Under the pieces are notes generated by a model. That model did not search any database. It saw only the letters and a list, made by a program, of their open reading frames with translations, and was not told the origin of the DNA. A DNA stretch of 61,777 bases from a virus (lineage: Duplodnaviria > Caudoviricetes). Where the stretch lies: positions 1-61,777 of the IMG/VR virus record IMGVR_UViG_3300027779_002131; one strand, given 5' to 3'. Shown here in pieces: positions 802 to 38,643 of the stretch. How positions within the stretch are numbered: the first letter of the stretch is position 1; every line of letters begins with the position of its first letter. A program made the position numbers and the translations under genes.

Positions 802-2073
802 TTAATGGGAATTCCATTGAATAGTACTGAAGTCAACGCCATCTTGATACATGTCCCATAATGGTGATAATTCCCTAAGTTGTTCAATAACATGTACCAT
901 TAAAGCGCCAACCTTATCAACTTCTTCTACTGTTGTATGGTGGCTAAAGCTAAAACGTATGCTACTATGGGCTAGTTCATCTGCTCTGCCTAGTGCTCTA
1001 AGTACATAACTAGGCTCTAAACTAGCACTTGTACATGCACTACCACTGCTTACAGCAACATTATCTAATGCCATAATCAAAGACTCACCCTCAACAAAGT
1101 TAAAACTTATGTTAAGTATGTTTGGTACTTTGTGATCTAGTGAACCATTAATGTATGTTTCCTCAATAGTAGTAAGTTTGTTTAACAATCTATCGTGTAA
1201 ACTTGCTATATATTTGTTACGTTCATCCATTTCAAGTTTAGCATACTTAAATGCTTCGCCCATGCCTACAATTTGATGTGTAGGTAATGTACCTGAACGC
1301 ATACCTCTTTCATGGCCGCCGCCATGCATTTGTCCTCTGATTCTTGCACGTGGCTTACGTCTAACATATAATGCACCAACTCCTTTAGGACCGTATGTTT
1401 TGTGTGCTGATAAACTCATTAAGTGTACAGGAAGCTCTGCTAAGTTAATAGCAATTTTACCTGTTGCTTGAGCGGCATCAACATGGAACATTATTTTCTT
1501 TTCAAAGCATAGTTTACCAATGTTTTCGATATCGTTAACAGTACCCATCTCATTGTTAATAAACATAATACTAACTAATATAGTATCATCTCTAATTTCT
1601 TTAGCGACCATGTCAGCAGTAACAATACCGTTTTCGTTTGGATCTAAGTAAGTTACTTCAAACCCATCTCTTTCTAATTCTCTGCACGGATCTAATACTG
1701 CTTTGTGTTCTATCTTACTTGTAATGATATGTTTACCATTAGTTTCATAAAACTGTGCGGCACCTTTAACAGCAAGGTTGTCGGCTTCTGTTGCACCACT
1801 TGTAAATATAATTTCTTTAGGATCAGCACCAATTAAGTCAGCAACATTTTTCCTTGCTTCTTCTACGGCATCATCTGCTGACCAACCAAAACTGTGACTC
1901 CTACTAGCTGGGTTACCAAACTCACCATCCTCAGACATAAATTTAACCATTGTTTCAACTACACGTTTATCACACGGGGTAGTTGATGCGTAATCCATAT
2001 AAATTCTGTTGGCAGACGGTGTTGCGTGAGTGTCAATCGTTGCTGTTATATCTCTGTGGCTTTTATGATCCAT
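802..2073 (-). CDS. iscS: Cysteine desulfurase IscS
   Basis: [19 protein letters not shown] (PLP lysine), SSGSACTS (catalytic Cys) and proteobacterial-type C-terminus SPLWDM. Confidence 0.97.
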
Positions 2074-3295: not shown

Positions 3296-3724
3296 CTAGT
3301 ATAAACCATTTGTTCTTAAATGTCTAGCAACTGCAGACTTCTGGTTTTCATACTTCCTTCGTTTCTTTTTCGATTTTAAATAACCAAATCCTGATATGGA
3401 TTGTAAAGGTACTTCACCAGAGAATATTTTCTTATTTTCTTCTCGTTGGGTTCTCTTTATAGCGGCATCTTTTTGACGCTTACGTTTTTGTGCAGGCTTC
3501 TCATAAAATTCACGCTTTGCTAACTCTTTCTGTCTATCAGCATTTTCTAAAATCTTTTTAAGTTTTCTTAATGCACCGTTAACATCACCATTTCTAACTT
3601 CAACAGTTGCACCTTTAAATTTATCTAAAAATGCTTCTTCTTTCCTGGCAAAAGGTTTTTTATTATTAAACGACTTTTTAAAGTTGTTTCCTGTGTTCTT
3701 TCCCCAATTGTTATTCTTGTTCAT
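3296..3724 (-). CDS. rpsU: Ribosomal protein bS21 with N- and C-terminal extensions
   Basis: VEVRNGDVNGALRKLKK...KREFYEKPAQKRKR core. Confidence 0.88.
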   Translation of the reverse strand: MNKNNNWGKNTGNNFKKSFNNKKPFARKEEAFLDKFKGATVEVRNGDVNGALRKLKKILENADRQKELAKREFYEKPAQKRKRQKDAAIKRTQREENKKIFSGEVPLQSISGFGYLKSKKKRRKYENQKSAVARHLRTNGLY

Positions 3725-4988
3725 TTAGGCCTCTATATATTCTATAGTTGTTATCAATCTCTGTTTGTCCGTTCTCATAATGTAGAATCGGAAAATTATT
3801 CGGTTCTACTGGATATTTATGAAATTGGATCTGTGTTACACCACTTTTCCTGAGTGCTGGTGCTCTAAACATGGTACTTAATAGGGTATTTTCTATTAAT
3901 GCTTTAAGTCCTCTAGCACCTAAGTCTGTCTTACTTGATATCCTTGCTATCTCATTTAAATACTCTGGTTCTATTAATAATTCAATATCGTCCATGTGCA
4001 ATAGCTCTTTATACTGCTCTACTAAGTTGTTTTCTACATCATCGAGAATTAATCTAAGTTCTGCTTCGCCTAATTTATCTAGTACTGCAATAACAGGCAC
4101 TCTACCTACTAGTTCTGGAATTAACCCATAATGTACAATATCTTGAGGAGTTGTTCTTCTAAGTATGTGGTTTCGGTCTGCTGTCGATATTAATTTAGAA
4201 CCAAATCCTATTTGTGTTTTCTTTGTTATATTCTTTGCAACAATTTTATCTAACCCTACAAATGCTCCGCCTAATATAAACAGCACATTAGCAGTATCAA
4301 ATTCAATATGTTCGTCACTATATTTAGCCGAGCCTGCTTTGCTGGATTTAATCTTCACTACAGTACCTTCTATTAGTCTTAATAGGGCCTGTTGCACTCC
4401 TTCTCCACTTACGTCGCGTGTAGAGGTGTTAGATTCGCCCTTACGGGCCTTCTTGTCAATTTCGTCTATGTATATAACACCCTTTTGTGCTGTTTCTATA
4501 TCCCAGTCAGCAATGCTCAACAGACGCTCTAAGACGCTCTCTACGTCTTCTCCAACGTATCCTGCTTCTGTTAGTGTAGTTGCATCAGCAATAGCAAATG
4601 GCACGCCTAATTTTTTTGCAAGAGTTTTAGCAAATAGTGTTTTACCTGTGCCAGTTGGACCAACTAGCAATACATTGGTTTTATCTATGTGGATAGCTGA
4701 TCCACCTAGTATTCGTTTATAGTGATTGTATGCACTGACTGCCAATAACTCTTTTGTATCAGAATGCCCTATTATGTGAAGATCTAAGAAATCTTTAATT
4801 TCTTGTGGACCTGGTAAATCGTCAAACGAAAGGGAAGTATCGGTAGCCGATAAAGTATTAACAACAATATCATAACTCAGCACTATACATTCATTACAAA
4901 TATATACAGATGGTCCAGCAATTAGTTTATCAACGTTGTCTCGGTTTTTCCCACAAAAACTACATTGTAGGTTTTTATTTTCTGCCAT
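3711..4988 (-). CDS. clpX: ClpX AAA+ unfoldase
   Basis: CSFC...CNEC zinc domain, GPTGTGKT, GYVGEDVE, IDEIDK, RDVSGEGVQQ and IGF loop. Confidence 0.97.
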   Translation of the reverse strand: MAENKNLQCSFCGKNRDNVDKLIAGPSVYICNECIVLSYDIVVNTLSATDTSLSFDDLPGPQEIKDFLDLHIIGHSDTKELLAVSAYNHYKRILGGSAIHIDKTNVLLVGPTGTGKTLFAKTLAKKLGVPFAIADATTLTEAGYVGEDVESVLERLLSIADWDIETAQKGVIYIDEIDKKARKGESNTSTRDVSGEGVQQALLRLIEGTVVKIKSSKAGSAKYSDEHIEFDTANVLFILGGAFVGLDKIVAKNITKKTQIGFGSKLISTADRNHILRRTTPQDIVHYGLIPELVGRVPVIAVLDKLGEAELRLILDDVENNLVEQYKELLHMDDIELLIEPEYLNEIARISSKTDLGARGLKALIENTLLSTMFRAPALRKSGVTQIQFHKYPVEPNNFPILHYENGQTEIDNNYRIYRGLNEQE

Positions 4989-8598: not shown

Positions 8599-8675
8599 TG
8601 GGGTGAACGACGGGGTTCGAACCCGCGACCTCCGAAACCACAATCCGGGGCTCTACCAACTGAGCTACGTCCACC
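8599..8675 (-). tRNA. tRNA-His(GUG)
   Basis: Cloverleaf with G-1, GTG anticodon, TTCGAA T-loop and encoded CCA. Confidence 0.96.
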
Positions 8676-8677
8676 AT

Positions 8678-8752
8678 TGGCGGTCTGTAAGGGAATCGAA
8701 CCCTTATATCAGGATAGACAATCCCGCATAATAACCATTATATTAACAGACC
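8678..8752 (-). tRNA. tRNA-Asp(GUC)
   Basis: GGTCTGT/ACAGACC acceptor stem, GTC anticodon and encoded CCA. Confidence 0.93.
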
Positions 8753-8760
8753 ATTGAATC

Positions 8761-8835
8761 TGGTACTCCCTGGGAGAGTCGAACTCCCGTTGCCGAGATG
8801 AAAACCCGGTGTCCTAACCACTAGACGAAGGGAGC
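8761..8835 (-). tRNA. tRNA-Glu(UUC)
   Basis: Cloverleaf with TTC anticodon and encoded CCA. Confidence 0.95.
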
Positions 8836-29682: not shown

Positions 29683-29758
29683 TGGTGGAGCTGATAGGGA
29701 TCGAACCTACGACATCCACGTTGCAAACGTGGCGCTCTCCCAACTGAGCTACAGCCCC
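29683..29758 (-). tRNA. tRNA-Ala(UGC)
   Basis: GGGGCTG acceptor with G3:U70, TGC anticodon and encoded CCA. Confidence 0.96.
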
Positions 29759-29765
29759 CAAATTG

Positions 29766-29841
29766 TGGAGCTCGGAATAGGATTCGAACCTACGACCTGT
29801 TGATTACAAATCAACTGCTCTGCCAACTGAGCTATCCGAGC
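29766..29841 (-). tRNA. tRNA-Thr(UGU)
   Basis: Cloverleaf with TGT anticodon and encoded CCA. Confidence 0.96.
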
Positions 29842-30830: not shown

Positions 30831-31942
30831 TACCAGTCAAATTGATAAATGTTACAGGCTTTAGGTTCAACTTCTCTAACACTATTAAGTATTATATCTT
30901 CTAACTCAGTCGGGTCAATGCCTTCAAATTTAGTTAACCTACTAATTTTAGATGCTTTTGCACTAGGCGATCTTCCTTGATCTAGTACACTAGGATTGTA
31001 CCAAGTTGATTCTCTTGCTACATTATACAATGGTATTCTGTAACGTTCATCAAATTCATCGTAATTGCCAGTTTGTGATGCTAAGTGGAATTTTAAGTTT
31101 TCGAATCCTGTGCGTTTTGAAATAGGAAATATGTAATCAAATTCTTCAAAAGACTTGTAATACATTTGTTTGTATACTTCTACATTAGTTTTTACACCAG
31201 TAGTAACTTCTATTACTTTACCAAATGATTCAATAGCGTACTTGTTTTGATAATACCCAGCATATAAAATTTCTGGTGTTAGCAAAAATGGATCTTTAAT
31301 AATATGTATGCCATGTTCTTGTTCTAGTATTGTAAAAGGAGCACTAAAGTTAAAGTAAAAAGTTGGAGATGCCCAACCTATACCGTCCTGAGGAGAGCCA
31401 TCTTCATTTAGATAATGTTTTCTACTTAGAAAAACATTGTTAAAGTCTGCCGAAACTGCTACAGTAGGTGCTTCTCCACCTAACATTAATATTCTATCGT
31501 TAAATTTAGACTTTTTAATTGCGGCAAGTTGTACAGAAATCTGAGGACTCATTGTTCTATAACGTCTAGTATATTCATTTAGATTGTTTTCTAAATGATC
31601 CTTTGCGTCTATGTCTTCAAAATGCAAGTCTAGATCTATTAGCTCTGCAAACTGTGTAGCAGTTAGTACATCATCTGCATTTATTACATTGCCATCCCAA
31701 AGAAATCTAAAGCATACTGCATTAACATCCTTACAGAAGTGTTTAGCCAAGTTTGCAGTGAATTGACTGTCTAATCCTCCACTTAAACAAACAGTAACAC
31801 CTTCTAATGTACTCAATTGTTCTTTAAACAAATTCATTAAGTTTGGTTCACTTGGTTTAGTAAGTATTAGTTTGCTGGTTCCAGCTTCATAATCTAACTC
31901 AAGTGTTGTTGTGTTGCCTATCGATAGTAATGTATTGTCCAT
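30830..31942 (-). CDS. N-type ATP pyrophosphatase (asparagine synthetase/QueC-like)
   Basis: VCLSGGLDS PP-loop, LMLGGE and KRTGFE. Confidence 0.7.
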   Translation of the reverse strand: MDNTLLSIGNTTTLELDYEAGTSKLILTKPSEPNLMNLFKEQLSTLEGVTVCLSGGLDSQFTANLAKHFCKDVNAVCFRFLWDGNVINADDVLTATQFAELIDLDLHFEDIDAKDHLENNLNEYTRRYRTMSPQISVQLAAIKKSKFNDRILMLGGEAPTVAVSADFNNVFLSRKHYLNEDGSPQDGIGWASPTFYFNFSAPFTILEQEHGIHIIKDPFLLTPEILYAGYYQNKYAIESFGKVIEVTTGVKTNVEVYKQMYYKSFEEFDYIFPISKRTGFENLKFHLASQTGNYDEFDERYRIPLYNVARESTWYNPSVLDQGRSPSAKASKISRLTKFEGIDPTELEDIILNSVREVEPKACNIYQFDW

Positions 31943-32021
31943 TAAAGGTTCTCTATTCAAACGTTTATGATAAATACTTAGTATAAATTGGATCAACCAA
32001 ATACTATTATTGGAGTAAAAC

Positions 32022-33578
32022 ATGGCAAGATACTTAGTGAGCATAAACGCCGCAGATGATACCGCGGCTCAGAGTGCTATTACAACCGCAGGTGCCTCAG
32101 TCGAAGCAACGTTAGGATTTACCTTAACATACGAGATTGAAGCCACTGAAGCACAGAAAGATGCTATCTCTGGTCTAACCGCTAGTCAGTTAGCAACAGA
32201 AACAGTTTCCGCCACTGTACAAGCAGGGGCAACATTTTCTAGAACACATTTGGACACTATTGTTCATTCATCTGGAAATAACGCCTGGAATCCAGCAAGA
32301 ACTGGAACAGGGAAATTTGTCTACTTAGTGGACACAGGTATTAATAACCTACACAACGAGTTCGTAGGTGGTACAATACAAAATTTATGGTCAGCATTTG
32401 CAGATGATGATGATGTATCAACTTACGGTGATGCTGGAGGTCACGGAACTGCTGTTGCTTCAATGATTATTGGAACAAACATTGGTAGTGCCAAAGATGC
32501 ATATTTACAGAACGTTAAACTGTTTAATACAAACGGTGGTAATGTAACAGTTGGTGAAATTATAAATTCATTAAGTGCATGTTTAGTTCATCATAAAGCA
32601 AATACTCAAACAGATGTTAAAGCAGTATGCTTACCTTGGACTATTCCAGCTAACGCATTCGTTGATGCTAAAATATTAGAAATGAACGCTTCTAATATGG
32701 TTGTTGTAGCCGCGGCAGGTAACGATGGGGTCGATGTAAATACTAAGTCACCAGCAGGCGTTAACGAGATTATAACAGTAGGTTCATTCAACTCGGACGA
32801 GCAAGTAACATCATTTACTAACGCACCTCATAGTAGTTCAAACAGTTTTGTTAACTACGGTGCTGAACTTGATATATTTGCATTAGGAGTAGGGATTGAT
32901 ATAGCAGATAAAGACAATGTATCGAACTACTTAACAGGAACTGGTACAAGTCTATCAGCAGGTTTAGTTGCAGGCGTTGTTACACATTATGTTCAACGAG
33001 ATCCTGCATTAACATCAAGTCAAATTAAAGAACAAATGTTAGCTTCAGGTCACGCAACAGGTATATTTAACTTAACATTTGATGACTCAGATGCAAGTAT
33101 TGATTATTCTTCTGTTTATAAATCAGCACTTACAACTAAGAACGTTGACGCTAGAGTATTAACAACAGTAACATCAGGTAGAATTGTTAATGTTAAACAT
33201 GGCGTGGCGGCAAGCACACTTGACTTAGGATTAAACGCATCAGCAACAGACGTTAAGATACTAGACTTTGCTCCGTTACCACCTTGGGTAACAATCGACA
33301 TAGCAACAGGTATTATAACTATTGATACAACTGATGCTAGTACATGTCCTTCCTCAAGAGCTCCAGGTATTTACTTGTTTGCTATAAGAGGTAGTGTAGT
33401 AGAAAGTGGTGGTTCTAATAAAGCAACAATGGTAGAAGAGTTCTCAATTGGATTATACACAACTAACGTTAGTGAATTAGACATCGATGGTGATCCAAGT
33501 TCATTCTATTACGATACAGATGATTCATCGTATGACGAAGTTGTTAACTATACTTCAGCATTGTCTTCCAAACCGTAA
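32022..33578 (+). CDS. Subtilisin-like S8 peptidase with prodomain and C-terminal Ig-like region
   Basis: VDTG, HGT, AAGN and GTS catalytic motifs. Confidence 0.92.
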   Translation: MARYLVSINAADDTAAQSAITTAGASVEATLGFTLTYEIEATEAQKDAISGLTASQLATETVSATVQAGATFSRTHLDTIVHSSGNNAWNPARTGTGKFVYLVDTGINNLHNEFVGGTIQNLWSAFADDDDVSTYGDAGGHGTAVASMIIGTNIGSAKDAYLQNVKLFNTNGGNVTVGEIINSLSACLVHHKANTQTDVKAVCLPWTIPANAFVDAKILEMNASNMVVVAAAGNDGVDVNTKSPAGVNEIITVGSFNSDEQVTSFTNAPHSSSNSFVNYGAELDIFALGVGIDIADKDNVSNYLTGTGTSLSAGLVAGVVTHYVQRDPALTSSQIKEQMLASGHATGIFNLTFDDSDASIDYSSVYKSALTTKNVDARVLTTVTSGRIVNVKHGVAASTLDLGLNASATDVKILDFAPLPPWVTIDIATGIITIDTTDASTCPSSRAPGIYLFAIRGSVVESGGSNKATMVEEFSIGLYTTNVSELDIDGDPSSFYYDTDDSSYDEVVNYTSALSSKP

Positions 33579-33593
33579 TAAGTTTTAAGTAAC

Positions 33594-33632
33594 AAAAACC
33601 GTGCTAAATATAAACAATAGCACGGTTTTTTT
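33594..33632 (+). terminator. Terminator hairpin containing a TAAATA late promoter
   Basis: 13-bp stem AAAAACCGTGCTA/TAGCACGGTTTTT with T-tract. Confidence 0.7.
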
Positions 33633-34673
33633 ATGATTATAGATCCAACAACACACAGCACAATATACAATCCATTAAGTTCGCAAGGACAATGGGCTCA
33701 ACATCGCTTCGGAAAACGAGACTACCCAAACTTAACACTAGACTTAGAAACTGTACTACACAGCTTAGACAGTATCTCAGAAGGCTTCTTTGTATTTGAT
33801 CGCCCTATATATTTAAAAAGTACATATGGTGATGCAGGATTATGGAAAGATGTTACTCGTTTATCCAAACTAGTAGGTGGTATGCTTACTGTATCTACTT
33901 ATGGAATGTTAGACGCTAAAGTTATTAAAACAATAAAACATCACCAAGCAATGATTCATGTGTTTTGTGATGGGTTTGAAGATGACTGCGGTAAAGTGTT
34001 TTTAGGTGCTGAATGGGAATCTATTGCAAACTTACTTAGTATTGCTAACTCGAATGCAATGGTAGAGTTTTTTGTGTTTGAACATAACAAACATCAGATA
34101 CCTTACATTATAACGTTTTGTGCTCAACGAAATGTTAAGATTAAATTTACGCCTGGCATTAGTAACGACAATATAGGCTCATGTGTTATTGACCATGACA
34201 GTAATTGGTTGTATGATGTTTTGCCTGTTGAGCTAGAAACAGAAATGTTAGATGCTGATTACGATGCCGCATTGCTTAGAGAGATTAAAGACAAATACAG
34301 CAATGTTAAGCCTGTTCAGTTAAAAAGACATTTAGAAAACTATAACAGTTTACGAACATTTATAGTCAACAAGAAAGGAAGAGGACTACTACAATTGCCA
34401 ATGATTAGCCAACTAATACCGCATAATCAATTACAAAAGTTTGATAATCCAGTTAAAGATGATATACATATTACGCCAACAGGACATGTTACTGAAAACG
34501 CAGAAGAGTACCATATGTTCTTAAATATGGTTAGTTCTGATTGGGAAATGACTAATAAAACCGTTTCTAAGATTAATCATTTAGATGAGTACGGATTAAA
34601 AACATTGTACTATGCACAAAAGTTTAATAAGGAATTTTTAAAATCTAGAAAAGTACAATCGTACTTCAATTAA
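33633..34673 (+). CDS. Radical-SAM-like protein lacking CxxxCxxC
   Basis: YGD, STYG, CDG and FFVFEHNKHQI resemble phage radical SAM enzymes, but there is no Cys triad. Confidence 0.5.
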   Translation: MIIDPTTHSTIYNPLSSQGQWAQHRFGKRDYPNLTLDLETVLHSLDSISEGFFVFDRPIYLKSTYGDAGLWKDVTRLSKLVGGMLTVSTYGMLDAKVIKTIKHHQAMIHVFCDGFEDDCGKVFLGAEWESIANLLSIANSNAMVEFFVFEHNKHQIPYIITFCAQRNVKIKFTPGISNDNIGSCVIDHDSNWLYDVLPVELETEMLDADYDAALLREIKDKYSNVKPVQLKRHLENYNSLRTFIVNKKGRGLLQLPMISQLIPHNQLQKFDNPVKDDIHITPTGHVTENAEEYHMFLNMVSSDWEMTNKTVSKINHLDEYGLKTLYYAQKFNKEFLKSRKVQSYFN

Positions 34674-34763
34674 GATAAATAGTTTATATAAGAATATAAC
34701 ATAAGGTTATATTAGTATCAGAGCATTCGCTCGTAATTGATACGCAATCCAAAGGAAAAACAC

Positions 34764-36074
34764 ATGTACAAGTATATAGCCGTGGCTCTTTTAGCCACTG
34801 TGTCTGCATCAGCGTGGGCGACAGATTATGTCACAGGCGTTGCTGATATTATTAATAACAATTGTGTAGTATGTCATAGAGCAGGTGGCATAGGACCAAT
34901 GAGTTTTGAAACGTATGACCAAGTTAGACCATGGGCGCCACTAATGGCTATTAAAGTAATGAAAAGAGAAATGCCACCTTATGCGTATGATCACGGTGTT
35001 GGTATACAAAAGTTACAAGGCGACTGGCGCCTATCCCAAGAAGATATTGATACTTTTGTTGAATGGGTAGACACTGGATCAATGTATGGCAATACAGAAA
35101 TTGTAGTACAGCCTGTAGTATTTCCAAATGATAATGAATGGAGTTTTGCACAGGACTTCGGTGAACCTGACCTTATAATTGCATCAACTCCTATAGATAT
35201 TCCTGCCGAAGGGGCGGATCTTTGGCATAAACATTATGTGCCTGCCGGCAACGAAGTTCCTAGATGTATTAAAGCAGTTCAAGTTAAGCCACGTGGAGAT
35301 GCTAAGGCCGTAGTGCATCACGCTAATAGTTCTGTATTCTTAACAAACGAAGGAACTGGAGAGTTAGAACGTTATGGACAGTTAACTGAATATGCTATGG
35401 GCAAGTGGGGTGAGATTCCAGGCGATGGTGTGTGCCGTACACTTCCAGCAGACTCACAAATTCTCTGGGACATTCATATGTATCCAGGAGGGGTTGGAGC
35501 AACAGCACAAGGACTAGCAGTTAAAGATAATATAGTAGAGATTGGACTATGGTTCCATGAAGTAGGATATGAGGACAAGAGTTACAATCAAGACTTAGCA
35601 CTATACCCTTTGCGAGATGGTTATGAGAATGGTCACTTAATTATACCTCCTAATGGTTATGCAATGACACAAGGGTTTAAGTCTTTTGACCATCCAGTGC
35701 GTATAGACAGTTTCCAACCACACGGACACTTGCGGATGAATGCCGCCAGCTTAGAGATATTTTATCCTGAAAGCGGACGTACAGAAAAGATAGGACAAGT
35801 ATCTAACTGGAGTGCAACTTGGCACCACAGCCATTTGTTTGATACTTCAGTAGCACCACTAGTTCCTGCAGGTGCAGTACTAGTTATGAAACAATGGTAT
35901 GACAATACTGCTGATAATCCAAACAACCCTGATTCAGATATGTGGGTAGTAGATGGCAGTAGGACTGGAGATGAGATGTCTCATTTTTGGATAGCCGTTA
36001 CACACTTAGATGATAAAGGCTATAATAAATTAAAGGAAGAACGAAATGAAAAAGTTAATATTGCTAGTAAGTAG
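34764..36074 (+). CDS. Exported c-type cytochrome fused to a copper type II (PHM/DBH-like) monooxygenase
   Basis: Signal peptide ending AWA; CVVCH and MPP; HH, H, HGH and EM copper ligands; AAGGA SD. Confidence 0.85.
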   Translation: MYKYIAVALLATVSASAWATDYVTGVADIINNNCVVCHRAGGIGPMSFETYDQVRPWAPLMAIKVMKREMPPYAYDHGVGIQKLQGDWRLSQEDIDTFVEWVDTGSMYGNTEIVVQPVVFPNDNEWSFAQDFGEPDLIIASTPIDIPAEGADLWHKHYVPAGNEVPRCIKAVQVKPRGDAKAVVHHANSSVFLTNEGTGELERYGQLTEYAMGKWGEIPGDGVCRTLPADSQILWDIHMYPGGVGATAQGLAVKDNIVEIGLWFHEVGYEDKSYNQDLALYPLRDGYENGHLIIPPNGYAMTQGFKSFDHPVRIDSFQPHGHLRMNAASLEIFYPESGRTEKIGQVSNWSATWHHSHLFDTSVAPLVPAGAVLVMKQWYDNTADNPNNPDSDMWVVDGSRTGDEMSHFWIAVTHLDDKGYNKLKEERNEKVNIASK

Positions 36075-37284
36075 TTTAATAACGTCTTTTGCTAGTGCTC
36101 ATGATGATATAGATATAGACTACGCTGAAAATGTAGCACCTATATTTGTAGAACAATGTCAGGCTTGTCACAGAGAAAATGGTATAGGACCATGGGCAAT
36201 GACTGATTATAGAATGCTACAAGCATTCGCTCCTGCAATCAAAGAAGCTATTGAGTCAAGGCGAATGCCGCCAGGACAGATAGATCCTAAGTATGTAGAT
36301 CGCATTATAAATCATAGGACATTAAGTCATACAGAAATGGAAACTATTGTAAAGTGGATTGATGCAGGAACTCCTGTAGAAGGTAATAGAGATCCGCTAA
36401 CAGAAACAGTATACTCAACTTCAGCGTGGGTACATGGTGAACCCGATATGATCATTGATGTTCCGGCGCAAGAGATCCCAGCAATTGGAAGTCTTGGCCC
36501 TAATGCAATACCTTATCGTTACCTTGCTGTAGACTCAGGACTAACAGAAGATCGTTGGTTGCGTGGCTCAGAGTTTCTACCTTCGGAGCCAACTGTTATG
36601 CATCACATGTTAAATTCAATTAGTGTTCCTGGACAGCGAAATGGTAACATCCTTGGTACACAAGGCGGTGGCCAAGAAGAAATGAACTATGCAGGTATTA
36701 GTGCGTATGTCCCAGGAGGAACACCTGACTTTTATGATGAGAACACTGGTGGTTTACTACGAGCAGGTAGTACTATAAACTTACAGTTACACTACACACC
36801 AGATGGTACTGCAAGAACAGACAATGCGAGGATTGGATTATACTTTCATGATGAGGGTGTAGTACCACAAGAAAGAATGGCAGGAGATTGTGCTTGTATA
36901 TTTCCTAACACTTGGACACCAATTCCGCCATACGATCCTAACTTTGTGCAGACAGCAGAAGTTGTACTAAAGAAGGATGTCAACTTGCATACATTCTTGC
37001 CACACATGCATTTCCGTGGAAAGAGTATGAAAGCAACAGCATACTACCCAGATGGAGAAGTAGAGGAGTTAATTAATATTCCTAACTATGAATATGCTTG
37101 GCAACTTTCGTATACGTGGAGAGAGCCTAAGTACTTGCCTGAAGGAACTCGGTTGTTTGTAGAAGGAGCATTTGATAATTCTGCAGAAAATAAGATGAAT
37201 CCTGATCCAAGCAGAGAAGTACCGTGGGGACAAATGTCAGAGGATGAAATGTTCTTTGGTGCATTTACTTGGAAAAATATTTAA
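36046..37284 (+). CDS. Second exported cytochrome c / copper type II monooxygenase
   Basis: Signal peptide ending ASA; CQACH and MPP; HH, LHY, HMH and EM. Confidence 0.87.
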   Translation: MKKLILLVSSLITSFASAHDDIDIDYAENVAPIFVEQCQACHRENGIGPWAMTDYRMLQAFAPAIKEAIESRRMPPGQIDPKYVDRIINHRTLSHTEMETIVKWIDAGTPVEGNRDPLTETVYSTSAWVHGEPDMIIDVPAQEIPAIGSLGPNAIPYRYLAVDSGLTEDRWLRGSEFLPSEPTVMHHMLNSISVPGQRNGNILGTQGGGQEEMNYAGISAYVPGGTPDFYDENTGGLLRAGSTINLQLHYTPDGTARTDNARIGLYFHDEGVVPQERMAGDCACIFPNTWTPIPPYDPNFVQTAEVVLKKDVNLHTFLPHMHFRGKSMKATAYYPDGEVEELINIPNYEYAWQLSYTWREPKYLPEGTRLFVEGAFDNSAENKMNPDPSREVPWGQMSEDEMFFGAFTWKNI

Positions 37285-37295
37285 GGAGACATAAT

Positions 37296-37385
37296 ATGTT
37301 GCAAATAATTACAGCAGTCAGTTGGGCAATAATAGTAACATACGTTGCAGTAAAATTGCCGTTTCTAATTATAATGCTTGTGTAA
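37296..37385 (+). CDS. 29-aa hydrophobic microprotein
   Basis: AAGGAG SD; MLQIITAVSWAIIVTYVAVKLPFLIIMLV. Confidence 0.6.
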   Translation: MLQIITAVSWAIIVTYVAVKLPFLIIMLV

Positions 37386-37397
37386 GAGGAAGTAGTA

Positions 37398-37568
37398 ATG
37401 AGAATAATCGGTATCCCTAAAGTGATAATCGATCTGGCATTTGAGTTATTCACTAGTGTGCTTATAGTGTTTCTATGTTTTATAATTGTATCTTGCGTTA
37501 TAGTATTAATTATAAATGTATACGACGATTATCGCACACTATGGAAAAATAGGAAAAGAAGAAAATGA
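37398..37568 (+). CDS. 56-aa single-TM protein with basic tail
   Basis: GAGGA SD; TM helix then WKNRKRRK. Confidence 0.6.
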   Translation: MRIIGIPKVIIDLAFELFTSVLIVFLCFIIVSCVIVLIINVYDDYRTLWKNRKRRK

Positions 37569-37681
37569 TAGTCCAGGGCTATGTGTTTATGGGCATTCTG
37601 GTATTTATTAACATTGCATGTTATGTAATGATTGATGCGTATTTCGAAGGTCATCCAGCCTTTACAGATGATGAAACATAA
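37565..37681 (+). CDS. 38-aa single-TM microprotein
   Basis: ATGA overlap with the previous ORF; MIVQGYVFMGILVFINIACYVMID... Confidence 0.6.
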   Translation: MIVQGYVFMGILVFINIACYVMIDAYFEGHPAFTDDET

Positions 37682-37829
37682 ACACTTTGCTGTTACATGT
37701 CTATTGTTATTAACTCTAATAATGTGTAGTACTGTTGATAAAGATAGTCAATACTCTTTTACTGAATATCATTTCGAAGATACTATTCCAGAAGAAAGAT
37801 GTACAGATGCAACTATTATTTGTCTCTAA
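37668..37829 (+). CDS. Small exported or lipoprotein-like protein
   Basis: Basic N-terminus, hydrophobic stretch ending in Cys, acidic tail. Confidence 0.5.
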   Translation: MMKHKHFAVTCLLLLTLIMCSTVDKDSQYSFTEYHFEDTIPEERCTDATIICL

Positions 37830-37856
37830 AAATATAGTTCGAAAGGAGGACACACA

Positions 37857-38045
37857 ATGATTAAAATAACTACATTAGTATTAATATTACTATTAACAGG
37901 ATGTAATAGCACATTTACATTTCGCTTTGCAACGAGCGACTCTCAATTTGATTACATGCCAGATCCATTAACGTGGGATAGAAATATACGAGATTGTAGA
38001 AGTGAGCCACAATGTAATGCGGCAGATTTGTTTAATAGATTTTAA
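37857..38045 (+). CDS. Small lipoprotein
   Basis: AGGAGG SD and LTGC lipobox. Confidence 0.75.
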   Translation: MIKITTLVLILLLTGCNSTFTFRFATSDSQFDYMPDPLTWDRNIRDCRSEPQCNAADLFNRF

Positions 38046-38323
38046 AGACCTACTTTAACAGTAATAGCACCAAGGGTAACAGGATGCAAACATGATCCTG
38101 TACTCTGCTTGTTCATTGTAACCGGCTTGCTCATTGCAAATACTGTTTTACTGCATGTTGGTAGTAAAACTATTGCCGCGGCATGTTTATTCTCACCATG
38201 CGTTGCTATTGTATCATTGGCTGTACTAACAATTGAAGCTTCAGCAAACACCGTAGGTGCGCCTGGACCAGTGATTGCGCCTGGGCCTACTAACGATGTA
38301 CCTACTTTTCCTATTCCGAACAT
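38042..38323 (-). CDS. PAAR-like tail spike tip protein (T4 gp5.4-like)
   Basis: G.PTVF / SKTVF / GAITVKVG repeats with H..H and CxH zinc ligands. Confidence 0.8.
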   Translation of the reverse strand: MFGIGKVGTSLVGPGAITGPGAPTVFAEASIVSTANDTIATHGENKHAAAIVLLPTCSKTVFAMSKPVTMNKQSTGSCLHPVTLGAITVKVGL

Positions 38324-38328
38324 AACAA

Positions 38329-38643
38329 TTATTTATCTTCTTTAATATCTGCTTCTGCTTCTGCTTCAGATTCAAGCATAGCGTTGTAGTCCTTATTAGT
38401 GTTCTCTAACGTTGGTAACACACAAAGAATGGTGTTGAGTTGCATAGTTACTATTTCTGCTTTAGCAGTTAGTACAAACGGTCCTAGCACTACGTCTGGG
38501 CCATTAATTAATACTGACCTTGGGTTTTGAATTGTAATGCAATCATCTTCTATATTAATAAGTTTACCAATAAACTCATCATTAGTAATACTTCTAACTG
38601 TAACTGTTTCTGATAGTTGATCTTCTAATATTGTAGTAAACAT
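38329..38643 (-). CDS. Second Sm-like-fold protein
   Basis: VTVRSITNDEFIGKL...I.IQNP; resembles 11119-11406. Confidence 0.55.
   Translation of the reverse strand: MFTTILEDQLSETVTVRSITNDEFIGKLINIEDDCITIQNPRSVLINGPDVVLGPFVLTAKAEIVTMQLNTILCVLPTLENTNKDYNAMLESEAEAEADIKEDK

Follow-up and report, generated by a model that had tools for sequence, protein, structure and literature searches.

A marine phage accessory cassette encoding two haem c-fused proteins of the PHM/DBH type

Introduction

PHM and dopamine beta-hydroxylase (DBH) are textbook animal enzymes that make amidated hormones and noradrenaline, respectively. PHM is the catalytic core of PAM (PDB 3MLL, 1PHM, 1SDW and 1OPM). DBH (PDB 4ZEL), whose relatives include tyramine beta-monooxygenase and MOXD1, carries an extra N-terminal domain, DOMON, ahead of its copper core and uses ascorbate as its reductant. 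In the literature searched, we found no studied bacterial or viral member of the PHM/DBH group. Here we describe a cassette of two overlapping genes, called A and B, and five small open reading frames (ORFs) that lies in a 61,777-nt IMG/VR virus record, IMGVR_UViG_3300027779_002131. We refer to this record, the whole stretch of DNA analyzed, as the window. A and B are very probably dicopper proteins of the PHM/DBH type fused to a c-type haem domain, and we propose that they serve as haem-fed monooxygenases in the periplasm of the infected host.

The phage proteins share with PHM the two-domain beta-sandwich fold and, as aligned by sequence profile, the six copper ligands together with their order. 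They differ from PHM in that they add an N-terminal c-type haem domain, are predicted to be periplasmic, have no PAL partner, and carry other residues in place of the PHM substrate anchors. With DBH they share the presence of an extra N-terminal domain ahead of the copper core; however, in the phage proteins this domain is a CxxCH cytochrome c, and the dimerization domain of DBH is missing.

Two further systems invite comparison. Three-subunit periplasmic flavoprotein-cytochrome c dehydrogenases of the gluconate 2-dehydrogenase and fructose dehydrogenase type have a three-haem cytochrome c subunit as partner. Bacterial operons that contain relatives of A can end with a Gluconate_2-dh3 subunit and a GMC FAD oxidoreductase, but they encode one to five haem-copper proteins in place of the three-haem cytochrome. 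These proteins would be the ones to receive the electrons, whereas the phage cassette is without a dehydrogenase. The second system is viral and involves amoC, a gene of the membrane-bound CuMMO family, whose fold is unrelated. Large aquatic phages that encode amoC are reported to carry a piece of the copper-dependent oxidation system of their hosts as an auxiliary gene (bioRxiv 10.64898/2026.06.18.733297). The window cassette, by contrast, would encode whole soluble enzymes, each having its own domain for electron entry.

Results

A and B combine a c-type haem domain with a two-copper core

The window DNA is phage. It comes from a large phage of marine waters that is uncultured and has structural genes of the tail type; CheckV estimates the completeness of the record at ~20%. 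The features of the cassette and other noted features of the window are listed in Table 1. Genes A and B overlap by 29 nt and, judged from the position of the B start codon and the motif that precedes it, B is translationally coupled to A. The two products are paralogues of the same architecture with 30% sequence identity. Each has a signal-peptide-like N-terminus as judged by eye, ending in ASAWA in A and in SFASA in B, followed by CxxCH and MPP motifs and then by HH, H, HxH, and M, in this order in both proteins.

Table 1. Coordinates of the cassette, its genes and other noted features of the window
Feature	Position	Strand	Remarks
Gene A	34764..36074	+	436 aa from ATG; AAGGA 9 nt upstream
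Gene B	36046..37284	+	412 aa; ATG inside the 3' end of A, behind AAGGAAG
29-aa single-pass hydrophobic peptide	37296..37385	+	AAGGAGA upstream
56-aa membrane peptide	37398..37568	+	Basic C-terminus; kept in L304-L306
38-aa single-pass peptide	37565..37681	+	ATGA overlap with the 56-aa ORF; phage-only family
53-aa ORF	37668..37829	+	Hydrophobic N-terminus, atypical lipobox LIMC; open frame only, putative gene; 65-aa TTG-extended form
62-aa lipoprotein	37857..38045	+	LLTGC lipobox; phage-only family
Accessory cassette, ~3.4 kb	34674..38041	+	Block missing from seven syntenic sister phage contigs
518-aa subtilase	32022-33578	+	Peptidase_S8 E 5e-23; PHROG 'protease' E 6e-34; upstream of and outside the cassette
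IscS-type cysteine desulfurase	802-2073	-	
AAA/ClpX-like ATPase	3711-4988	-	
tRNA genes	8599-8835, 29683-29841		

A 97-row family alignment contains twelve columns that are invariant or nearly so (B numbering). Six of these, C38, C41, H42, and the nearly invariant M74-P75-P76, make up the signature of a class I c-type cytochrome. The remaining six correspond to the copper ligands. The CuH-site residues H186, H187, and H249 are invariant in the 97 rows and present in 105 of 105 viral homologues, and the CuM-site residues H320, H322, and M402, which align with the HTH and DEM segments of PHM, are likewise present in all 105. Taken together, each of the 12 haem and copper positions is retained in 104-105 of the 105 viral homologues, and a gap accounts for the single exception. 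Loss of the ligands in phage homologues, proposed earlier as a way in which the assignment might fail, was therefore not seen.

AlphaFold models were built on family alignments (pLDDT 89.1 for A and 89.8 for B) and compared with the PDB by Foldseek. The best matches of the B model were PHM (3mll, E 4.3e-13, TM by target 0.60) and then DBH (4zel), while those of the A model were DBH (4zel, E 1.7e-12) and PHM (1sdw, E 1.1e-11). The top 20+ PDB matches of the two models were all PHM or DBH, with a probability of 1.00 and a TM by target of ~0.6, and the next unrelated folds followed at E values of at least 2e-5. Working from sequence only, a profile of short family members matched DBH at 8.7e-8 and PHM at 2.5e-4, and in the profile alignment the family motifs VHH, HY, PHxH, and DEM line up with the known copper ligands of DBH and PHM. 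Coordinates, alignment, and structural comparison thus bear out the original prediction of two overlapping exported paralogues that each hold a CxxCH...MPP domain and all six PHM/DBH ligands. As regards protein identity alone, we have little doubt that A and B are haem c-fused dicopper proteins of the PHM/DBH type.

Several searches for closer described relatives gave nothing. PHROGs has no family for A or B, NCBIfam returned nothing meaningful for either, B had no tblastn match among 50,697 GenBank phage records, and phmmer with B alone matched no PDB sequence. Proteins 97% and 87% identical to the window A protein do exist (P0001 and P0002), and the family as a whole is large: B retrieves 11,480 cluster representatives with E<=1e-3, of which 1,574 reach E<=1e-30. 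Most of the best-scoring representatives are ~580 aa long and have an extra N-terminal AhpC-TSA / ResA-like thioredoxin-fold domain.

The cassette is a single insertion into a phage genome

When the gene for a 346-aa protein that lies upstream of A was used as query, seven viral contigs (L384-L390) came up that share synteny with the window on either side, over more than 12 genes and at 47-94% amino acid identity. In these sister contigs only 2-8 nt, and no other gene, separate the homologue of the 346-aa gene, which is 77-79% identical, from the end of the PAAR-like gene. Because all seven share the flanks and lack the whole block, we interpret the cassette as a single accessory insertion between two convergent core genes of the phage. 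The empty sites also show that A and B are dispensable in the sister phages. A copy of the cassette elsewhere was found in none of the five sister records searched, all of which are fragments of 11-19% completeness.

An independent DNA run yielded a 3,243-nt contig with 3 differences that spans B, the micro-ORFs, the PAAR-like gene, the glutaredoxin-like ORF (grx), and nrdB. The right junction is bridged in this run, and depth is even across the region. A 16-nt inverted pair, 88% complementary (34637-34652 / 38031-38046), brackets the cassette, and TTAAG / TTAAAG occurs at the two joints with the empty site of the sister phages; these were the only repeats found at the cassette ends, and both may be due to chance in AT-rich DNA. 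The nearest relatives of the cassette (L304-L306) have other flanks on both sides and carry other small lipoproteins after the 29- and 56-aa peptides; the cassette therefore occupies other genomic sites even among near relatives. A promoter and terminator scan of positions 31800-38500 gave 28 and 3 candidates, against 24.6 and 3.5 in shuffled sequence. As neither count is in excess, we draw no operon boundary.

Relatives of A (2,686 at E<=0.001 among the candidates scored) include chromosomal genes of Pseudohongiella, Pseudohongiellaceae, SAR86-labelled, and other marine gammaproteobacteria that are 64-72% identical to it. In an 86-row tree, 30 of the 32 viral rows group in a single clade (support 87) that falls among the A genes of Pseudohongiellaceae, and window A branches off first within a clade of 18 rows, all viral (support 99); the two other rows labelled viral (L005 and L082) group with bacterial genes. 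The tree suggests that gene A was captured from Pseudohongiellaceae-like gammaproteobacteria. None of the close relatives of B (75-94% identical) lies on a contig longer than 126,572 nt. Identity is 46-52% for the best chromosomal relatives, which have the thioredoxin-fold domain. In a 281-row FastTree phylogeny, whose support values are less trustworthy than those of the A tree, B belongs to a 14-row clade (12 viral rows, the window, and one contig of a metagenome-assembled genome (MAG); support 100) that sits inside a 49-row set holding 36 bacterial rows. Gene B appears to derive from thioredoxin-domain-fused relatives in the same Pseudohongiellaceae-like bacteria and to have since lost that domain. 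A B gene that is 75% identical to window B, and that the tree places with the viral clade, lies on a 6,996-nt contig from a Pseudomonadales MAG bin (L158). This contig is probably phage DNA that was binned together with its host, which makes a host link possible. Pairwise dN/dS values of 0.08-0.18 for A and 0.07-0.13 for B are indicative of purifying selection on both genes.

We do not believe that the block is bacterial DNA misassembled onto a phage contig, an error that the original prediction had singled out for checking. The high identity of A to chromosomal gammaproteobacterial genes and the left junction, for which there is no bridging independent record, are what such an error would produce. 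However, GC3 of A (0.29) and B (0.27) is as in the flanking phage genes (0.23-0.28), and the total GC of A (41.6%) and B (40.8%) is ~11 points under the bacterial A median of 52%. Furthermore, the right junction is bridged, with even depth, in an independent run, the sister contigs are syntenic, A and B fall into clades almost wholly of viral contigs, the small genes of the cassette belong to phage-only families, and homologous cassettes lie among T4-type core genes. Misassembly is thus rejected as extremely improbable.

Gene A is always accompanied by B or by the lipoprotein gene in phages

Cassettes of other phages were collected in two scans. The scan of IMG/VR seeded with A kept 80 of 247 stretches encoding A relatives, and the metagenome scan seeded with B kept 80 loci of 541 relatives. 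Fifty-nine of the A-seeded loci have adequate flanks. A is found together with the 62-aa lipoprotein in 31 of these, together with B in 26, and with both in 2, and it never occurs alone (0/59). The corresponding counts among 20 dereplicated loci are 8, 11, 1, and 0. In several lineages the lipoprotein gene uses the start codon that B uses elsewhere, inside the 3' end of A, and its product has the same first residues.

B, for its part, was never found without A: all 52 B-seeded loci with an upstream flank have A upstream, and the two genes overlap in 27. This regularity, the translational coupling of the pair, the purifying selection on both genes, and the location of all small ORFs inside the same insertion would fit an obligatory periplasmic heterodimeric oxygenase with the small proteins as membrane subunits, which is the arrangement originally predicted. 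We nevertheless consider an obligatory heterodimer unlikely. A occurs without B in 31/59 phage loci, and the bacterial tandem arrays of 1-5 A copies are without a B-type gene in the operon. PHM, moreover, acts as a monomer. With respect to the small subunits, a natural variant has lost the lipoprotein gene, which is also present in phages that have no A. A prediction of the A+B complex scored 0.00, which is under the mark and counts neither for nor against binding.

The T4-type contexts of homologous cassettes include gp23, gp19, UvsY, UvsW, gp46/gp47, a SegE homing endonuclease, and baseplate genes. In T4-like contigs (L014-L017 and L245-L255) a SegE-type GIY-YIG homing endonuclease (E 4e-32) is encoded directly upstream of a slot between gp46/gp47-like and baseplate genes. 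This slot holds A and the lipoprotein gene in some contigs and the lipoprotein gene alone in others, and the endonuclease may be a route of cassette mobility. A phage lysozyme gene adjoins A in 28 loci. A pqqA-like peptide gene is present in 17/80 A-seeded, 12/80 B-seeded, and 3/67 lipoprotein-seeded phage loci, just downstream of B in the loci compared by eye, and in 0/155 cellular loci. In the window, no match to PF08042 was found at E<=10, and a scan for the E-x-x-x-Y motif was also empty. Six phage contigs (L036, L042, L049, L061, L064, and L081) seemingly have a split B-type gene, with a separate 104-112-aa cytochrome c (Cytochrom_C E 5.5e-8) followed by ~233- and 316-aa pieces that match B residues 115-412 at 58%.

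Most of the small ORFs are phage genes within the same insertion

All five small ORFs predicted after B exist as open frames, and four of them go beyond what chance would give: the 38- and 62-aa ORFs because of selection, and the 29- and 56-aa ORFs because they are kept in relatives. Only the 62-aa ORF and the 65-aa TTG-extended form of the 53-aa ORF are as long as 60 aa, the default cut-off of the ORF-listing tool. The 29-aa ORF directly follows B in all three closest relatives (L304-L306, in which B is 94-96% identical) at 76-83% identity, with a pairwise dN/dS of 0.35-1.6 over its 29 codons; no homologue was found beyond these three. The 56-aa ORF is 67-89% identical in the same relatives (dN/dS 0.24-0.57), has one weak relative beside A in L047/L282, and gives a weak PHROG match (E 0.0076). 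The 80 metagenome loci found with B contained nothing homologous to the 53-aa ORF at E<=0.01, and its 65-aa form had no match at E<=1e-3 in the 155 A-seeded viral and cellular loci; both searches ran outside L158-L303 and L384-L397. Two strain differences within this ORF (37796 and 37802) fall on third codon positions.

The 38- and 62-aa families have many homologues and are under purifying selection (median dN/dS 0.23 over 33 pairs and 0.39 over 213 pairs, respectively). The 38-aa family ends in an invariant motif, M..FE.H.AF, given also as M..YFEGH.AF, and was detected with a hidden Markov model (HMM) in 23/80 A-seeded viral and 0/155 cellular loci; it is also present in 20/80 B-seeded metagenome loci. 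In the lipoprotein family, columns C16, N43, C47, R48, C53, and F59 are invariant; C16 is the lipobox cysteine (invariant in 15 rows), and the two other invariant cysteines lie in the segment N.R.CRS.P.C....LF. Pfam LPAM_1 scores 17.2 bits on the window protein, under its cut-off of 20. The HMM of the lipoprotein family found members in 43/80 A-seeded viral loci and in 0/155 cellular loci. These two small families, absent from the cellular loci, are often but not always found with A.

How tightly the lipoprotein is tied to A was visible from two directions. Among 67 viral loci found with the lipoprotein as seed, A is adjacent in 39, whereas neither A nor B lies within 4 kb in 28. The A-less loci are located between gp23 and gp19/UvsY/UvsW, or between gp46/SegE and a baseplate gene, and some of them keep the 38-aa peptide alongside. 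Two phage records that are 79-85% complete likewise have the lipoprotein but not A. In addition, a DNA contig from run X4 joins position 37826 to 38043, an exact loss of the lipoprotein gene: the missing stretch starts at the stop codon that closes the 53-aa ORF and extends as far as that of the lipoprotein itself. Because the lipoprotein occurs without A and is deleted in this natural variant, it is not an obligate subunit. We conclude that the small proteins are real phage genes and part of the insertion but not obligatory subunits, and that the 53-aa ORF remains a putative gene.

The same observations can be read more radically. The five small ORFs might have nothing to do with the enzymes and encode ordinary phage membrane proteins or lipoproteins, with roles such as superinfection exclusion or lysis control, in a hypervariable slot. 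The A-less lipoprotein loci between T4-type core genes and the two nearly complete records without A would be expected in that case. So would the clean presence/absence polymorphism of the lipoprotein in this phage population, the lysozyme gene beside A in other phages, and the small-ORF content that varies even among the closest relatives. We treat this as a serious rival that could well be correct, even if we lean somewhat the other way. What speaks for a connection is that phage A is never without B or the lipoprotein (59/59), that the lipoprotein gene lies within 124 nt of the A/B block, on either side, in 31/33 cases drawn from several gene contexts that seem unrelated by eye, and that in some lineages it takes over the start codon of B. 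Moreover, the window cassette has no spanin partner and no holin-endolysin set. The proposal that the micro-ORFs are parts of the system has accordingly held in so far as they share one insertion and A always has B or the lipoprotein for company, but not in so far as phages without A can also have the lipoprotein and the 38-aa peptide, and the lipoprotein can be lost.

Searches for the function of the two phage-only families gave leads only. The best PDB match of the lipoprotein profile, the lytic conversion lipoprotein of phage T5 (E 0.27), involves the signal peptide only and is not significant. The ESM Atlas returned generic 'lipoprotein' or unnamed clusters, including an Rz1 look-alike for the lipoprotein (0.89), and nothing above 0.83 for the 38-aa peptide. 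A spanin or lysis cassette was also considered and rejected: we found in the cassette neither an endolysin nor any ORF that encodes a periplasmic domain, and the lipoprotein is dispensable in the variant.

Bacterial relatives of A often lie in operons with a flavoprotein dehydrogenase

The 71 bacterial loci with A genes contain same-strand arrays of 1-5 copies. Directly upstream, in 57 of the 65 loci with enough flank, is the gene of a 319-aa exported protein that has no Pfam or PDB sequence match. We considered the 346-aa gene upstream of A in the window as a relative of this partner and rejected it (BLASTP E ~1). Directly downstream of A, 22/63 loci have genes for the Gluconate_2-dh3 small subunit (E 2e-17) and for a GMC FAD oxidoreductase (E 1e-19). 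Because bacterial A arrays often precede these two genes, an electron-recycling pair is suggested, in which the flavoprotein could feed the fused haem and the hydroxylase and dehydrogenase together could recycle electrons.

Divergently transcribed from the bacterial A operon is a thioredoxin-fused paralogue (L083-L157; for example L087:4627-6360, minus strand). In 45-46 rows this paralogue has RxN for HxH, with HH, H, and Met kept. Because of this replacement it is not the ancestor of phage B, and it may be a one-copper or non-catalytic relative.

The thioredoxin-fold domain of most bacterial B relatives, which is of the AhpC-TSA / ResA-like kind, raises the question of whether A and B act on an organic substrate at all. 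As periplasmic electron sinks or redox-protective enzymes, they would reduce O2 or peroxide via cytochrome c and manage the oxidative stress or redox balance of the infected cell; the lack of recognizable substrate-anchoring residues and of a dehydrogenase partner in the phage would also be in keeping with such a role. We judge it improbable. The HxH+Met site, which activates O2 for attack on C-H bonds in PHM and DBH, is complete in 105/105 viral homologues, and the diverged tandem A copies beside the GMC dehydrogenase resemble a catabolic substrate family. The thioredoxin-fold domain itself best matches ResA and CcmG, which are cytochrome-maturation reductases, and not only peroxiredoxins.

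Contigs of two RNA libraries match A and B

Two metatranscriptome libraries from two studies contain contigs that are 100% identical to the window on A (34706-35034 and 35410-35788) and B (36651-36830). The same libraries have contigs on the S8 protease gene, the PAAR-like gene, nrdA, and nrdB. Neither has a contig on positions 34006-34673, though both DNA runs cover this stretch, and the parts of the cassette without RNA-library cover do not count as evidence of silence. The absence of expression that might have refuted the original prediction is not the case as far as RNA-library contigs can show.

Other genes of the window

Elsewhere the window encodes five tRNAs (His, Asp, Glu, Ala, and Thr), an IscS-type cysteine desulfurase (Aminotran_5, E 6e-86), NrdA, NrdB, the glutaredoxin-like ORF, and the PAAR-like protein. 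A Mtd_N tail-fibre domain and one virion-protein match also lie within it. An IscA-like Fe-S assembly gene adjoins the cassette in related cassette-carrying phages. The 518-aa subtilase gene is kept in the sister phages and is the best-covered part in both RNA libraries. Near-identical copies of the stretch recur in marine metagenomes, with a share of at least 0.5 in 12 runs from 9 coded studies, one of which is marked as a possible source of the window DNA.

Discussion

We propose that the cassette is a mobile, host-derived auxiliary cassette whose two haem-fed copper monooxygenases act on a small periplasmic substrate with electrons from host cytochromes or dehydrogenases, a reading that we hold to be somewhat more probable than its negation. 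A and B are predicted to be exported, coupled paralogues, each composed of a one-haem c-type cytochrome domain and a two-copper core of the PHM/DBH type. The haem domain would take single electrons from periplasmic donors in place of ascorbate. These donors might be soluble cytochromes c of the host or flavoprotein or quinoprotein dehydrogenases. From the haem the electrons would pass to the two coppers, and the copper held by HxH and Met would bind O2. The C-H bond of a small periplasmic compound would then be hydroxylated, probably not that of a glycine-ended peptide. In the bacterial context the hydroxylase would make an alcohol, which the dehydrogenase would oxidize, returning electrons. 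During infection the pair may add to or sustain a periplasmic oxidative step in the host's use of organic matter, as products of auxiliary metabolic genes. The small genes would encode tiny exported or membrane proteins that are helpers at most, in maturation, copper delivery, or anchoring, and the lipoprotein and 38-aa families seem to be phage inventions that often travel with A. The original prediction had also let the haem replace ascorbate, with electrons drawn from the host respiratory chain. That substitution remains plausible, but a dedicated periplasmic flavoprotein dehydrogenase is indicated at least as much as the respiratory chain.

A number of observations weigh against our proposal. 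The first concern the chemistry. The residues that anchor the glycine carboxylate in PHM, Arg240, Asn316, and Tyr318, correspond to Leu/Gln, Phe/His, and Ala/Trp in the phage proteins. The segments concerned read FLPHMH and DEMFFGAF in B and FQPHGH and DEMSHFWI in A, compared with YRVHTH and DEMCNLY in PHM. Because these anchors are absent, PHM chemistry cannot be transferred to A and B as such, and Gly-extended peptides, proposed earlier as a substrate, are unlikely. Nor do the proteins reach the Pfam cut-offs: B scores 16.4 against 23 bits with Cu2_monoox_C, A matches neither copper model, and Cytochrome_CBB3 and Cytochrom_C score 17-19 bits on A and B against cut-offs of 21-27. A and B appear to be distant relatives of Pfam's Cu2_monooxygen / Cu2_monoox_C family rather than members of it as drawn. 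The literature searched reports no activity, metal content, or substrate for any family member.

Further points concern partners, expression, and assembly. A GMC dehydrogenase gene is present in only 22/63 bacterial loci and the phage carries none, which weakens the case for this donor. A helper role of the small proteins is weakened by the lipoprotein and the 38-aa peptide that occur in T4-like phages without A. The viral loci are related samples rather than independent events, and neighbour maps, as read by eye, suggest ~10 gene contexts. The contigs of the RNA libraries are a hint rather than proof of expression, as contigs cannot demonstrate a transcript and may be carried-over DNA. Lastly, the left junction (~34706-34723) is a contig break point in all four runs. 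No listed record bridges it by 31 nt on both sides, and an exact 50-nt search across it gave 0 matches in viral contigs. For want of a bridging record, this junction rests on the window's own assembly, even depth, and synteny.

A bolder version of our proposal can be formulated, which we offer as speculation and consider rather improbable. The cassette would be a self-contained, horizontally mobile system for periplasmic C-H hydroxylation, by which ocean phages rewire the oxidation of dissolved organic matter (DOM) in infected gammaproteobacteria. The haem-copper enzymes would form an electron-recycling loop with the flavoprotein or PQQ dehydrogenases of the host, the hydroxylase supplying the alcohol and the dehydrogenase handing electrons back through the fused haem. 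Such a loop would resemble the coupling that has been proposed between methane monooxygenase and methanol dehydrogenase. For maturation or docking, A would depend on an obligatory partner, either the phage-invented two-cysteine lipoprotein or B, which would explain why A is never alone in phages.

The literature searched contained no report of haem-fused PHM-like proteins from bacteria or phages and no described phage role, in agreement with what the original prediction had said of the latter. The present analysis indicates that haem-fused proteins of the PHM/DBH type form a very large microbial family that has been captured and kept intact in many marine phage lineages, including T4-like ones. 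The rule that A comes with B or the lipoprotein, the sister phages with empty sites, and the variant with a deleted lipoprotein gene make the question of helpers directly testable. If our proposal is correct, copper hydroxylases that are independent of ascorbate and fed by haem would be of interest for biocatalysis. And if the enzymes do hydroxylate components of marine DOM, infection by these phages would directly change one step in the turnover of carbon in the ocean.

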